IMG/VR virus record: IMGVR_UViG_3300033388_007403
Strand: one strand, 5' to 3'
Source of the DNA: an uncultured virus (IMG/VR IMGVR_UViG_3300033388_007403)
Taxonomy: Duplodnaviria; Heunggongvirae; Uroviricota; Caudoviricetes
Length of the DNA stretch: 20,000 nucleotides
Part shown: in pieces, positions 3,221-10,639 of the stretch
How the letters are laid out: each line of letters starts with the position of its first letter
Numbering within the stretch: the stretch's first letter is position 1
Program-made: the position numbers and the translations under genes
Notes under the pieces: model-generated
Seen by the model: the letters and a program-made list of their open reading frames with translations, nothing else
Told to the model about the DNA's origin: nothing
Database searches by the model: none

Positions 3221-3305
3221 TGAGAGTGGAGGGATTCGAACCCACACGTCCGTTAGGATCCTGGTTAAAAGCCAGGTACAGACTGCCAATATCTGCAACA
3301 CTCCC
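3221..3305 (-). tRNA. type II (long variable arm) tRNA with TTT (Lys) anticodon
   Basis: GGGAGTG/CACTCTC-A; CCTGG-CTTTTAA-CCAGG; variable arm ATCCTAACGGACGT. Confidence 0.85.
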
Positions 3306-3306
3306 T

Positions 3307-3606
3307 CTACTTCTTTGCTAACTGCTCATCTTCTATCTGGATCTTAACTTCTTTCAACTCATCCCGATATTTAGTAATAATCTCTAAAAGTCCTTGATAT
3401 AATCTGTAAGATATTTCAGGAAACATTTTAATCTTACTCATATTACTATCTAATATAGAAGCCATAATCACACCTTTATGACTAGTTATACTGATGTTCT
3501 CGACATTATCTAATAATCCATTACAATCATCAATTTCATCAGCAATTTCTAGCCTTTGTTTTTTATTATTTTTACACGCAAAAAAACCAGATGGTTTATG
3601 TCCCAT
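3307..3606 (-). CDS. hypothetical protein (99 aa)
   Basis: ORF overlapping the end of the upstream HNH ORF. Confidence 0.65.
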   Translation of the reverse strand: MGHKPSGFFACKNNKKQRLEIADEIDDCNGLLDNVENISITSHKGVIMASILDSNMSKIKMFPEISYRLYQGLLEIITKYRDELKEVKIQIEDEQLAKK

Positions 3607-5154: not shown

Positions 5155-5248
5155 TTCCAGATACATTAGAGATAAAAGTGATTTCCAATTTCCCCAGTGG
5201 GGATGATAAGATTCGAACTTATGATAACTTTTATCATTCAACCTGGAT
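5155..5248 (-). ncRNA. Y RNA (YrlA)-like RNA, copy 1, reduced permuted tRNA module
   Basis: TCCAGGTTGA-N9-GTTATC...GTATCTGGA; GATAAAAGT/ACTTTTATC stem; T arm ATAAG-TTCGAAT-CTTAT precedes a TCCCC/GGGGA hairpin and a D-like AATTGG. Confidence 0.7.
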
Positions 5249-5250
5249 AA

Positions 5251-5323
5251 TGGATACATACGGGACTCGAACCCGTAATTCCTGGGTGCAAACCAAGTGT
5301 GTTCCCAATTACACCAATGACCC
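5251..5323 (-). tRNA. tRNA-Ala(TGC), bulged acceptor stem
   Basis: G3:U70; CTTGG-TTTGCAC-CCAGG; one extra T in the acceptor 3' strand. Confidence 0.82.
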
Positions 5324-8438: not shown

Positions 8439-8641
8439 TTCTTTCATTCAGTGCTAAAGGTTTTCATTAACTGGTATATTAATAAAAATTAACTCTAACT
8501 CTGAATGAAATATTTATAAGGATCTAAATTCACTCAAAAAATTGTAGGATTAGCTTGAGGTAAGAATTCGCTACCTGCACATCAAAACAAATCTTCAAAA
8601 AATTAATTTAAAATATTTAGGTTAACAATTTAGATCCTTAA

Positions 8642-8712
8642 CCCTGTATAGCAGTATCGATCTGCTGCTTCAACATAGACAATGTTGTGTGCTTCCATTA
8701 CACCAATACAGG
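8642..8712 (-). tRNA. tRNA-Asp(GTC)
   Basis: CCTGTAT/ATACAGG-G; CAACA-TTGTCTA-TGTTG; AGCAG-ATCGATA-CTGCT. Confidence 0.82.
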
Positions 8713-8718
8713 TAAAAT

Positions 8719-8789
8719 ACGGATACAGTGTTAAAAAGAGGTAAAATTAAAATTTAAAGGTTTTAGATAACTCTTTTCAGTCAACCCGT
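8719..8789 (-). ncRNA. Y RNA-like RNA, copy 5 (minimal)
   Basis: ACGGGTTGA-N9-GTTATCT...AACACTGTATCCGT; AAAAGAG/CTCTTTT stem. Confidence 0.7.
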
Positions 8790-8797
8790 TTTTTATA

Positions 8798-9541
8798 CTA
8801 TTTTAACCATTTTCTTATTGTGTTATCAGATACCCCATATTTCCTACCAACAGCACAATAATTAGTTTCTTTAATTTCTTTCAAAAGTCCTTCTTTTGAA
8901 GGTCTTTCAACTTTTCTTCTAACTATATGCCAACATTTTTGAGAACAATATTTTGTTTCCCTATTTTTTCCAACTTTTTTTGCTTCAAATTCTTTTTTAC
9001 ACATAGGACAAATTTTTATTTTTCTCTTTTTCTTAGGTCGTCCTTTAGATTTTTTAAACCATATATCTTTTAATTTTTTTATCCATTCTTCATCTAAATA
9101 GGCGATCTCAGACTCGAACTGAGGACCTTCTGAATGTAAACCAGAAATGCTTCCAACTGCACCAATCGCCTGTTTTTTAACTAATTCTTTTCTCCAATAG
9201 ATATCACTCTCCCATATATCTATTACTTTCCATCCATTTTTTTCCAAAAATATTCTTTTATTAATGTCTCTTGTTATATTGAATTGTTGAGATTTTGTTA
9301 AATTATCTTTCTGATATAGTTTCGGATTAGCATGCCAATAATCTCCCATAACTCTAAATACAATCTTTTTTTCAGGGAATACATAATCACAAATATATCT
9401 TTGGATAGGATATTGGAAATAAATTATTGCGTTTTCATCATCACATATTGAAAAAATAGTTTTAATGTCTTCTGGGAATTTTACTCCGTAGCCAAGAGAA
9501 GTTAAAATATCTCTAAATTCTCTTTCTGGTTTGGTCCACAT
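8798..9541 (-). CDS. Vsr/DUF559-like endonuclease with Zn finger and HTH, containing an in-frame tRNA
   Basis: TKPE...QYPIQRYICDY...GDYWH...GWKVIDIWESD; CPMC...YCSQKC; AVGRKYGVSDNTIRKW. Confidence 0.8.
   Translation of the reverse strand: MWTKPEREFRDILTSLGYGVKFPEDIKTIFSICDDENAIIYFQYPIQRYICDYVFPEKKIVFRVMGDYWHANPKLYQKDNLTKSQQFNITRDINKRIFLEKNGWKVIDIWESDIYWRKELVKKQAIGAVGSISGLHSEGPQFESEIAYLDEEWIKKLKDIWFKKSKGRPKKKRKIKICPMCKKEFEAKKVGKNRETKYCSQKCWHIVRRKVERPSKEGLLKEIKETNYCAVGRKYGVSDNTIRKWLK
9099..9171 (-). tRNA. tRNA-Val(TAC) embedded in a CDS
   Basis: AGGCGAT/ATCGCCT-A; TCTGG-TTTACAT-TCAGA; CTCAG-TTCGAGT-CTGAG. Confidence 0.88.
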
Positions 9542-9591
9542 TTTAGAACTATTCTTTATATTTTTTGAAAAGTAAGTGCAAATTAAAAAAT

Positions 9592-9725
9592 TGTGGATAC
9601 GGTGTTAGAAAACATAATTTTTTACTGTGCTAACCATTACACTAATCCCTGATTATTCGGGGATGGAGGAATCGAACCCCCACTAAATCTCCAATAGATA
9701 GATAACGTTTTCAAATCAACCCACT
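9592..9725 (-). ncRNA. Y RNA (YrlA)-like RNA, copy 6, full permuted tRNA module
   Basis: GTGGGTTGA-N9-GTTATCT...AACACCGTATCCAC; T arm GGGGGTTCGATTCCTCC, then ATCCCCGA-ATAA-TCAGGGAT, then D arm GTGTAATGGTTAGCAC. Confidence 0.8.
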
Positions 9726-9728
9726 TAA

Positions 9729-9854
9729 TGGATGTAGTTGGGTTCGAACCAACGACCTCTCCGTTATATTGTATAAATTATTTTTTCAACAAAAATAATT
9801 TAAATGTTATAGAATAATTGCAGCGGAGTGCTCAACCAACTGAGCTTCACATCC
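9729..9854 (-). tRNA. intron-containing tRNA-Ile (probably GAT), intron ~9768-9820
   Basis: GGATGTG/TACATCC-A; CTCCG-CTG[53 nt]ATAA-CGGAG. Confidence 0.82.
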
Positions 9855-9967
9855 AGAAACACAAGGGGCTTTATCTAGTGCTGGGTGAGCACATAGATCC
9901 CTCCCCTTGTGTGTAATTATAAAAGATTTTTGTGTGGCTTCTGCCACCCCTATTAACTTATAAAAGA

Positions 9968-10042
9968 AGAGCAATGAACAGGTTATACTCCTGTCTCTGT
10001 AGCGATAAAGCCACTATCCTAATTTACTAGACGATCATTCTC
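9968..10042 (-). pseudogene. degenerate tRNA-like gene
   Basis: Glu/Asp-like D arm TCGTCTAGT...AGGAT; GTGGC-TTTATC-GCTAC with a 6-nt loop; ACAGG/CCTGT T stem; bulged acceptor. Confidence 0.55.
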
Positions 10043-10044
10043 AA

Positions 10045-10115
10045 CTCCGGAACCAGGATTCGAACCTGGAATAGCTGATTAACAGTCAGTCGTGATACCA
10101 TTTCACCATTCCGGA
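10045..10115 (-). tRNA. tRNA-Asn(GTT)
   Basis: TCCGGAA/TTCCGGA-G; ACTGA-CTGTTAA-TCAGC. Confidence 0.92.
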
Positions 10116-10116
10116 A

Positions 10117-10240
10117 TTATATTAACCATTTTCTTATAGAGTTATCACTTACACTATATTTTTTACCTGTTCCTACATATCCTAATTCTTTTACTTCTTT
10201 TTTTAATGTTTCCATTAGAGGTCTAACTACTTTTCTTCTT
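10117..10240 (-). pseudogene. C-terminal HTH remnant of an endonuclease
   Basis: RRKVVRPLMETLKKEVKELGYVGTGKKYSVSDNSIRKWLI, similar to the C-termini of ORFs 1557-2246 and 8798-9541. Confidence 0.75.
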
Positions 10241-10254
10241 GAATACTGATTACA

Positions 10255-10281
10255 TTCGATACAAAAAGGAAGATATCTTTA
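10255..10281 (-). promoter_or_regulatory. TAAAGA-N16-TCGAA promoter-like motif
   Basis: Recurrent motif upstream of the endonuclease remnant. Confidence 0.5.
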
Positions 10282-10306
10282 AGTATTATGGTTCGAATGT
10301 TCAAAA

Positions 10307-10379
10307 CAAGGGAAGCAGGACTCGAACCTGCAACCTTCTGGCTCAAAACCAGATGTTCCACCAGTTGAACTATTCCCCT
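10307..10379 (-). tRNA. tRNA-Gln(TTG)
   Basis: AGGGGAA/TTCCCTT-G; TCTGG-TTTTGAG-CCAGA. Confidence 0.88.
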
Positions 10380-10449
10380 ATTAAAAAGGATAACTCTATT
10401 AAATTTTTAAAGATCAGGGTCTTGGATATTACCTCTACACCACAAGACT

Positions 10450-10478
10450 ATTATAACATATAACTATTCACTTATCAA
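10450..10478 (-). promoter_or_regulatory. sigma70-type promoter at the head of the tRNA array
   Basis: TTGATA-17 nt-TATAAT with extended TG. Confidence 0.75.
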
Positions 10479-10639
10479 ATACTTTTTTCACTCTGGCGGA
10501 ATTAATCTGCCTCATTTACTCAGTGCTACGATACTCACAACTCTCACACTCTTTACTTAGATGACACCAGGGAGTACAAAAACCATACTTCTCTGCCATC
10601 TCATAAAACTCACCATGAGCTTCATCTATCTCTGTGTGC

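Follow-up and report, generated by a model that had tools for sequence, protein, structure and literature searches.

The DNA analysed here is a stretch of 20,000 nucleotides (nt) from an uncultured virus of the Caudoviricetes (IMG/VR record IMGVR_UViG_3300033388_007403), hereafter called the window. On its minus strand it contains an open reading frame (ORF) of 247 codons for a nuclease resembling homing endonucleases, and within this ORF lies, in the same orientation and read without a stop, an entire tRNA-Val(UAC) of 73 nt (Table 1). We consider it likely that this is a dual-coding phage gene, in which a functional tRNA occupies the linker between two protein domains and is translated through, and in which processing of the tRNA would destroy the message. 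The comparison with relatives indicates that selection acts on one and the same stretch of DNA in two ways, as a tRNA and as open coding sequence, and that this stretch lies between two protein modules that are themselves selected. Chance nesting could account for what is seen in the window by itself; it is the comparison with relatives that makes the arrangement significant.

The nested tRNA-Val and its reading frame

The nested tRNA is called as Val(tac) by ARAGORN and matches the Rfam family RF00005 with 57.8 bits, against a gathering score of 29. Its minimum-energy fold is the cloverleaf, in which 20 of 20 stem pairs hold. The anticodon loop of 7 nt reads UUUACAU, with U33, the anticodon UAC and a purine at position 37; the discriminator base A73 is present and CCA is not encoded. 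Anticodon and discriminator agree with the identity rule for valyl-tRNA synthetase. The first base of the tRNA is the second base of codon 124 and its last base the second base of codon 148, and the tRNA is translated in frame as residues 124-148, a peptide of 25 residues (QAIGAVGSISGLHSEGPQFESEIAY); LHSEGPQFESEIAY is a linker-spanning stretch of the protein. An earlier note, made from the letters of the window, had described a complete tRNA-Val(TAC) in frame within an endonuclease ORF, had spelled out the stop-free peptide and had called this the only Val tRNA of the window. Both programs agree on the tRNA and the peptide is exact. ARAGORN finds a single tRNA-Val among the 31 tRNAs of the window, which applies to these 20 kb alone, as the tRNA array continues up to the left edge of the window. 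Val aside, the array covers 18 other amino acids.

The codons before the tRNA encode a nuclease domain that resembles Vsr and DUF559. The half after the tRNA comprises, in this order, a conserved helix with the motif DEEW..LK.IWFKK, which starts 5 nt past the end of the tRNA, then a basic stretch, a zinc ribbon with four cysteines (C178, C181, C199 and C203) and a C-terminal helix-turn-helix (HTH).

Conservation of the arrangement among relatives

In a large protein database, the family comprises 61 representatives at E<=1e-30 among 1.84 billion, and 40 of the 44 best matches cover at least 97% of the query with 38-71% identity. Most members have about 330 amino acids (aa), because they carry an extra N-terminal HTH domain. 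An alignment that joins 25 of these 44 matches to the window protein (alignment A1) contains an in-frame stretch at the position of the tRNA, which is conserved in near relatives and divergent yet present in distant ones.

At the DNA level, the comparison is based on 26 full-length homologous loci, 23 from metagenomes (L011-L033) and three from viral contigs (L091-L093, of which L091 and L092 are identical here). The ORF is open through the tRNA site in all 26. In 17 of them, ARAGORN finds a tRNA at the same relative place inside the gene and within one open frame (16 Val(tac) and one Ile(tat)), while Rfam at E<=1 yields no tRNA inside the gene in the other nine. When the sequences are aligned to the nested tRNAs, however, four of these nine loci (L015, L020, L025 and L027) retain 20 of 20 stem pairs and the anticodon TAC, and L016 has the same sequence as L015. 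Thus, a cloverleaf with a TAC or TAT anticodon is kept in 22 of the 26 loci (21 TAC, one TAT). In the five additional tRNAs, the T-loop is unusual (GAGCGTWAC) and the D-loop lacks GG, and for this reason neither ARAGORN nor Rfam called them; their classification as tRNA relics was rejected because of the complete pairing and the anticodon. The earlier note had proposed that homologous ORFs be checked for a tRNA-derived linker and a conserved frame, and this comparison, in which stops and frameshifts are absent from all 26 loci, supports its view of the arrangement.

An open frame through a tRNA is not a matter of course. Among the 121 free tRNAs of the same loci, 28 (23%), 37 (31%) or 50% are open in a given frame, depending on the frame. 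In 11 of the nested tRNAs T54 is the first base of its codon, and in six it is the second. These frames are open in 28/121 and 37/121 of the free tRNAs, and yet 17 of 17 nested tRNAs are open in the frame that is used. Their lengths differ (73 nt in seven, 74 nt in seven, 75 nt in two and 80 nt in one), and the flanks are in frame every time. Among 176 tRNAs in 171 sources, 20 lie within an open frame that has 150 codons or more and extends for 40 codons or more to either side of the tRNA, and 18 of these 20 belong to the focal family. These results argue that the open frame through the tRNA is maintained against the odds and that the nesting is a conserved, selected feature. The remaining two of the 20, which come from the other 158 tRNAs, are a tRNA-Tyr and a tRNA-Phe that share one frame of 172 codons (L032:1473-1648), which is probably open by chance; no protein similarity search was made for this frame.

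The family turned up only in metagenomic and viral contigs, and not in the genome collection or the GenBank phages that were searched. A profile scan of genome contigs with the family alignment returned 24 loci, all of them distant relatives of the nuclease domain and none with the full architecture. A tblastn search of GenBank phage records returned 40 records, none of which covered 80% of the protein; the halves were matched separately, and a single-protein scan of viral contigs likewise gave separate matches to the two halves.

The linker segment evolves as a tRNA

The tRNA alignment comprises 17 sequences, the window and 16 loci, with L092 left out as a duplicate, and has a mean column identity of 62%. 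Standard pairs occupy 99.1% of the 340 pair cells, and sliding the 3' partners by 1-3 columns lowers this share to 39.2-49.1%. Both sides have changed in 18 of the 20 stem pairs (118 cells), all four stems are compensated, and the covariation score was reached by 0 of 500 shuffles. T34, A35 and the discriminator A are invariant, and CCA is encoded in six of the 17. Because the 17 tRNAs were called by ARAGORN and were thereby preselected for folding as tRNAs, some of the pairing is built in from the start. This selection does not account for the place that they share, for the anticodon or for stems with lineage-specific compensation, such as the acceptor stem of L027. By these comparative measures, the segment evolves as a tRNA.

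Two conserved protein modules flank the tRNA

The alignment A1 has 26 invariant columns, which are spread across both halves of the protein, and all 26 residues are present in the window copy. The invariant nuclease core consists of Q43, Y44, Q47-Y49, D52, G66, D67, W69, H70, N72, P73, W110, E111 and S112. After the tRNA, W153 in the helix, C178, C181, C203 and positions of the HTH are invariant. The family mean of protein column identity is 41%. In nine pairs, the nuclease half has ratios of nonsynonymous to synonymous differences per site (pN/pS) of 0.11-0.38, and the half behind the tRNA has ratios of 0.22-0.57, although pS reaches 0.5-1.0 in most pairs and the ratios overstate dN/dS near saturation. 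The closest pair, L019/L021, has ratios of 0.11 and 0.22, respectively. Both protein halves thus appear to be under purifying selection.

In the family, the motif DWSE..K.LWFKK begins 0-9 nt past the 3' end of the tRNA, directly after CCA where this is encoded, and there is no conserved Met or other start after the tRNA. The DNA-binding module can therefore be made only by read-through of the tRNA. The two protein halves co-diverge (Mantel r 0.50, 0/5000), as do the tRNA and the nuclease half (Mantel r 0.35, 6/5000).

An AlphaFold model computed with A1 has a mean predicted local distance difference test (pLDDT) score of 83.6, with two confident modules at residues 1-129 and 150-247. The nuclease domain reaches a pLDDT of about 78-93, and residues 133-147, within the tRNA-coded stretch, fall below 50. 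The model is consistent with a tRNA-coded peptide that serves as a flexible, unstructured hinge between the nuclease and the zinc-ribbon/HTH modules.

The best PDB match in Foldseek is the catalytic domain of I-Bth0305I (3r3p, E 9.8e-4, TM score 0.75-0.78 normalised to the target), and Vsr (1cw0) is matched with E 1.5e-3 and a probability of 1.00. The family profile aligns with Vsr at E 1.7e-4 over the core DF[VA]...G[CD]FWH...WE, and only weakly with the sequence of I-Bth0305I (E 0.034). The Asp and His of the D...FWH core are presumably the catalytic residues, as in the Vsr-type fold, and D52, D67, H70 and E111 are invariant here. In Pfam, where the Vsr/DUF559 families are PF03852 and PF04480, DUF559 is matched by 18 of the 26 family members at E<=1e-3 (best 4.2e-8) and HTH_23 by 14 of 26. 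For the window protein, DUF559, Vsr and MTES_1575 align at residues 43-123 and zinc-finger and HTH families at 170-247, all below the cut-offs. The Vsr-like and Zn-finger/HTH domains named in the earlier note are thus roughly right: they agree with the fold and profile searches, and Pfam matches them weakly in this copy.

Among the PHROGs, the C-terminal module is matched by 'HNH endonuclease' and the N-terminal part by 'endonuclease' and 'homing endonuclease'. The last 42 residues of an HNH endonuclease of 229 aa in the same array are 76% identical to the HTH module of the focal protein, and a remnant of 32 codons of this module lies elsewhere in the array (Table 1). Judged from such matches, the modules have been shuffled in a way that is typical for free-standing homing endonucleases. 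Less firmly, we infer that the protein is itself a free-standing homing endonuclease, to which a useful tRNA is linked and with which it is co-inherited.

A predicted competition between translation and tRNA processing

The strongest promoter-like site in the interval 8500-10500 lies upstream of tRNA-Gln (Table 1) and is a candidate origin for a transcript through the tRNAs and the focal gene, and between the array and the focal gene no outstanding promoter or terminator match was found in this interval. With nothing convincing to separate it from the array, the focal gene is probably part of the array transcript.

In the mechanism that we propose, the focal gene would be co-transcribed with the tRNA array. 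Passage of the ribosome would unfold the tRNA and yield the full-length nuclease, in which the bases of the tRNA are read as a passive linker of about 25 residues. Folding of the tRNA, followed by cleavage by RNase P and 3' processing, would instead yield tRNA-Val together with a nuclease fragment that lacks a stop codon and a DNA-binding fragment that lacks a start codon. The tRNA and the nuclease would be drawn from one RNA pool and would exclude each other on each single molecule, and a nuclease that may do harm would thereby stay scarce. The earlier note had proposed that processing would cut the mRNA and thereby couple tRNA maturation to nuclease silencing; this would be the most likely consequence, given the action of RNase P and 3' processing on tRNA precursors in general.

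Many full-length relatives have a long hairpin whose end lies 0-15 nt ahead of the start codon; it was found in the 85 nt before the start in L012, L016, L019-L023, L029, L032 and L093. Its outer arms are conserved (TTCGAACC...GGTTCGAA) and resemble a T-loop and its complement, while its inner stems vary by locus and covary such that complementarity is kept. In the ten clearest loci, the z-score ranges from -2.0 to -5.6, and in several loci a GGAGG or GAGG box lies within the 3' arm. The hairpin is thus a candidate for an element that sequesters the ribosome-binding site and acts as a second brake on translation, which in the full-length relatives would restrict the production of the nuclease further. 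A comparable translational brake is known for the intron endonucleases of T4.

The copy in the window differs from these relatives. Family homology begins only eight codons before its ATG, which shows that the N-terminal HTH domain of about 75-85 aa is missing by 5' truncation, and the hairpin is absent. Because the N-terminal HTH domain, the hairpin and a Shine-Dalgarno sequence are all lacking, the tRNA is probably the main product in the phage of the window, and the nuclease may be weakly expressed or disappearing. The tRNA of the window looks fully functional whether or not the ORF is expressed.

Origin and possible mobility of the nested gene

A tree was computed from 25 proteins after removal of the linker, with L016 and L092 left out as duplicates. 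At the supported branches of this tree, genes without the tRNA are placed among genes that have it: L031, which has no nested tRNA, lies inside a clade with 98/96 support together with six tRNA-bearing genes. The parsimonious reading is that nesting arose in a common ancestor and was followed by about four losses; it would not be economical to assume that one isoacceptor was captured several times at one and the same hinge.

The earlier note had suggested that the nested tRNA makes the nuclease gene hard to delete. The relatives bear this out in part: the four loci that lost the tRNA kept the ORF, the window copy lost its N-terminal domain and its start signals and kept the tRNA, and the database proteins P0149 and P0145 end or change in sequence just past the tRNA-coded stretch. 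The functions of tRNA and nuclease are therefore separable in evolution.

A more far-reaching idea, which we hold tentatively and consider possible rather than probable, is that a mobile nuclease cassette carries tRNA-Val(UAC) as a hinge cargo between phage arrays, that the usefulness of the tRNA protects the cassette, and that the competition between ribosome and RNase P, together with the hairpin at the ribosome-binding site of full-length copies, sets the dose of the nuclease. This would be a recurrent and previously undescribed strategy. If it is true, standard elongator tRNAs in nuclease genes would represent a recurrent sharing of DNA between selfish genes and useful RNA genes in phages.

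A comparison with L001, which has a syntenic Gln-Asn-Ile-Ile-Val-Asp array with a free Val(tac), was uninformative with respect to an empty site, the shared tRNAs being 57-78% identical and the tRNA-Val 63%. A search for close phage relatives, in which an exact 30-mer of the neighbouring tRNA-Asp was sought in viral contigs, returned 0 matches. Insertion by way of a spare tRNA end was also considered: pieces resembling a tRNA 5' half are found upstream of the gene, but against the nested tRNA or the tRNA after the stop they gave local scores of 5-14 and no consistent similarity, and the model is unsupported.

The flanking tRNAs vary between the loci of the family. In L012, a second, free tRNA-Val(tac) at 3252-3325 starts at the stop codon of the gene and is 57% identical to the nested one. 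In L031, a free Val(tac) lies at 300-374, about 60 nt upstream of the open frame. These two arrangements hint that tRNA-Val(UAC) loci are the home of the endonuclease gene.

Alternative explanations

Several observations weigh against a dual-coding gene that is maintained for both of its products. The ATG of the window copy has no Shine-Dalgarno sequence of the GGAG type, unlike most genes of the window, and without its N-terminal domain this copy may escape translation. In Pfam, the window protein scores 18.8 against a cut-off of 20.6 for DUF559, 16.5 against 27 for Vsr and 18.8 against 38.2 for MTES_1575. The cloverleaf has been lost in four loci, L017 (with a short linker), L018 (11/20 pairs), L028 (5/20) and L031 (3/20), in which the ORF is nevertheless intact, and the protein therefore does not require the tRNA. 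The five cloverleaves with variant T-loops may be unusual functional tRNAs or tRNAs that have lost their elbow contacts, and their tRNA function is uncertain. Co-divergence of the tRNA with the C-terminal half is not significant (Mantel r 0.15, 430/5000). The backbone of the protein tree is weak, with 11 of 22 inner branches open, and no empty-site allele, as would be relevant for homing, was found in a close relative. The high pS values and the preselection of the aligned tRNAs, both mentioned above, belong to the same side.

The alternative that survives best concerns the window rather than the family. It states that the ORF of the window is a relic, in which tRNA-Val is the sole working product and the frame is the undecayed remainder of a full-length endonuclease gene, the nesting in the family being real. 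The loss of the N-terminal HTH domain, of the Shine-Dalgarno sequence and of the 5' hairpin would be expected for a relic; the tRNA fragments just upstream of the ORF suggest rearrangement, and P0149 and P0145 illustrate decay around a retained tRNA-coded stretch. Nonetheless, the frame is intact over 247 codons in a sequence of 33% G+C that is rich in stop triplets, none of the 26 family-invariant residues has been lost, and pN/pS against the nearest relative, L011, is 0.38 and 0.41. Moreover, the 72%-identical protein P0002 begins with Met at nearly the same point, such that the short form may be a maintained variant. We consider decay of the window copy rather unlikely on balance, and a gene that is still dual-coding the better account.

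Alternatively, the cloverleaf could be a tRNA-like element that acts in cis without decoding, for example as a cleavage signal for RNase P or as a stabiliser of the mRNA, or it could be mere linker code. Structures in mRNAs that resemble tRNAs are known (Mukai 2021, PMC8124441), and the T- and D-loops of five relatives were rejected by ARAGORN and Rfam. A cleavage signal, however, would need no fixed anticodon, and the anticodon is TAC in 21 of the 22 cloverleaves and TAT in the other. The invariant discriminator A, the compensation in all four stems and the encoded CCA of some members likewise speak against a non-decoding element, as does the position of this tRNA as the sole Val tRNA in an array that serves 18 other amino acids. 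A cis element is thus very unlikely, and a decoding tRNA remains the preferred reading.

That two separate remnants, one of a nuclease and one of a DNA-binding module, came to lie in frame across an unrelated tRNA by chance is highly improbable. The earlier note had named this as the outcome to be expected if the tRNA of homologues held stops or frameshifts. Of the free tRNAs, 23-50% are open in any one frame, and endonuclease modules have been shuffled within the array of the window, but all 26 loci are open at the same place, and nearly all of the best database matches span the whole protein. In addition, the halves co-diverge, both are under purifying selection and no start follows the tRNA. 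The last alternative, in which the tRNA acts as an intron that is excised, with the mRNA halves ligated to encode a protein without linker, can practically be dismissed. The ends produced by RNase P and RNase Z, a 3'-OH and a 5'-phosphate, would suit phage RNA ligases. In 15 of 17 cases, however, the length of the tRNA (73, 74 or 80 nt) is not a multiple of three, and its removal would put the halves out of frame, while read-through keeps the frame every time; excision and ligation are thus excluded as a route to the protein.

Relation to known systems

Homing endonuclease ORFs occur inside introns of tRNA genes, where a tRNA and an endonuclease are likewise nested in one transcription unit. 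The topology is the inverse of that described here, where the RNA gene lies inside the protein gene and splicing is neither needed nor possible in frame.

The closest published case is the tRNA-Sec gene selC, which was predicted to be nested in selB of Alphaproteobacteria and which its authors call the first entire tRNA in a bacterial coding region; alternative expression of the tRNA and of the full-length protein was proposed there (Mukai 2021, PMC8124441). As in the focal family, the ORF holds a complete tRNA on its sense strand, and this tRNA is conserved in relatives, with remnants in some of them (here L018); both cases are bioinformatic. The selC/selB arrangement differs in that a cellular translation factor has the tRNA in its C-terminal extension and binds this very tRNA. 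In the focal family, the nested RNA is a standard elongator tRNA-Val and the host gene encodes a phage nuclease with no evident tie to valine; as the tRNA is placed between two conserved domains, the whole DNA-binding module depends on read-through. The same report cites a mitochondrial tRNA-Lys within cox1 of Armadillidium vulgare (Mukai 2021, PMC8124441). This, too, is a complete tRNA in direct orientation in a coding region; it represents, as cited there, compaction of an organelle genome, whereas the focal array has ample spacer DNA.

SegB of T4 is a homing endonuclease encoded in a phage tRNA cluster that reportedly promotes the inheritance of the tRNA region together with itself (Brok-Volchanskaya 2008, PMC2330249). 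Like the focal gene, it is an endonuclease gene among phage tRNA genes, and the same kind of linkage is proposed here. SegB differs as a GIY-YIG enzyme with its own intergenic slot and no internal tRNA, and cleavage and homing have been shown for SegB, whereas the focal family is known from sequence. I-Bth0305I, of the Vsr-like family of homing endonucleases (Taylor 2011, PMC3239194; Dassa 2009, PMC2677866), is reportedly intron-encoded in a phage recA gene. The modelled nuclease domain of the focal protein matches I-Bth0305I and Vsr in fold; the DNA-binding modules differ.

Except in compact organelle genomes, a structured RNA gene is believed to overlap protein code on the same strand only very rarely. 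In the literature covered, the predicted tRNA-Sec in selB is the only bacterial case that we found in print, and no description of a tRNA nested in a homing-endonuclease gene or another phage nuclease gene was found in the full-text literature searched, with subscription journals outside its coverage. New features of the present case are the location of the tRNA between two domains rather than in a terminal extension, its nature as a standard elongator tRNA and the identity of the host gene as a phage nuclease of the mobile type. Here, an ordinary elongator tRNA is under the double constraint of cloverleaf pairing and an open frame over deep divergence. This offers a natural system for studying the competition of ribosomes with tRNA-processing enzymes for a single transcript, the ways in which a useful passenger can restrain or stabilise a selfish nuclease, and the freedom of sequence that is left to a tRNA that must stay translatable. 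In addition, annotation pipelines that forbid an overlap of coding sequence and tRNA will split or drop such genes, and phage tRNA counts are underestimates, since five nested tRNAs are detected by neither ARAGORN nor Rfam.

The tRNA array of the window and further observations

The window is a phage-like region with 33% G+C. ARAGORN finds 31 tRNA genes between 105 and 10380, without exception on the minus strand, and Rfam confirms 30 tRNA matches. Endonuclease-type ORFs are interspersed among these tRNAs (Table 1), and past 10.6 kb phage-type genes follow, such as one for a DnaB-like helicase. Among public sequencing runs, two DNA runs of one study contain 5% of the sampled words, and no RNA run was listed as a match.

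Table 1. Features of the window, and nested tRNAs of related loci that the standard programs missed (coordinates of the respective sequence; - and + denote the strand).
Feature	Position	Strand	Remarks
Focal ORF, 247 codons	8798..9541	-	Coordinates include the stop codon; contains KKQAIGAVGSISGLHSEGPQFESEIAYLDEEW
Nested tRNA-Val(UAC), 73 nt	9099-9171	-	ARAGORN Val(tac), Rfam RF00005; sole Val tRNA of the window
Vsr/DUF559-like nuclease domain	9172..9541	-	Codons 1-123 and first base of codon 124
Zinc-ribbon/HTH module	8798..9098	-	Last base of codon 148 to codon 247, and stop codon
Eight in-frame codons before the ATG (KNIKNSSK)	9542..9565	-	Still family-like; homology ends here
Best sigma-70-like promoter match in 8500-10500	10450..10478	-	11/12, TG extension; upstream of tRNA-Gln
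HNH endonuclease, 229 aa	1557..2246	-	Stop codon abuts tRNA-Leu (1470-1555)
Remnant of the focal HTH module, 32 codons	10117..10215	-	Stop codon abuts tRNA-Asn (10044-10116)
HNH enzyme in the array, 171 aa	3596-4111	-	
ORF in the array, 216 aa	6431-7081	-	N-terminal HTH; no clear nuclease match
Fragment ORF in the array, 105 aa	7881-8198	+	Matches part of an HNH PHROG
Nested Val(TAC) missed by ARAGORN and Rfam	L015:620-692		
Nested Val(TAC) missed by ARAGORN and Rfam	L016		Same sequence as L015
Nested Val(TAC) missed by ARAGORN and Rfam	L020:2877-2949		
Nested Val(TAC) missed by ARAGORN and Rfam	L025:1255-1327		
Nested Val(TAC) missed by ARAGORN and Rfam	L027:1483-1555		

Endonuclease genes with a C-terminal HTH module of the focal type have their stop codons 0-5 nt from the 5' end of the next tRNA. 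The respective positions of stop and tRNA are 1557/1555 and 10117/10116 in the window, 3253/3252 in L012, where the two overlap, 1770/1775 in L021 and 1880/1883 in L018. This suggests a fixed junction between endonuclease genes with this module and the 5' ends of tRNAs.

Upstream of the focal ORF, at 9729-9854(-), lies a tRNA with an AT-rich insertion of 53-55 nt in the anticodon loop at position 37/38. It scores 49.9 bits with Rfam and is identified as Cys(gca) by the intron search of ARAGORN, while standard ARAGORN missed it; a second, uninterrupted tRNA-Cys(gca) is located at 2646-2717. Between the intron-bearing tRNA and the focal ORF, at about 9600-9728(-), there are tRNA fragments, which consist of a T-arm with the 3' end of an acceptor stem, followed by the 5' end of an acceptor stem with a D-arm. 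Many relatives have similar pieces resembling a tRNA 5' half about 80-115 nt upstream of the start codon, and these resemble neither the nested nor the downstream tRNA.

Among the related loci, L029 contains a second zinc-ribbon/HTH ORF at 1493-1700, directly after an intact endonuclease gene, as a tandem duplicate of the DNA-binding module; the apparent break downstream in this gene arose because the tblastn match extended into the second ORF. In L033, ARAGORN finds a tRNA with the anticodon CTA at 5240-5310, labelled as Pyl; this phage contig would then encode a tRNA that reads amber codons.

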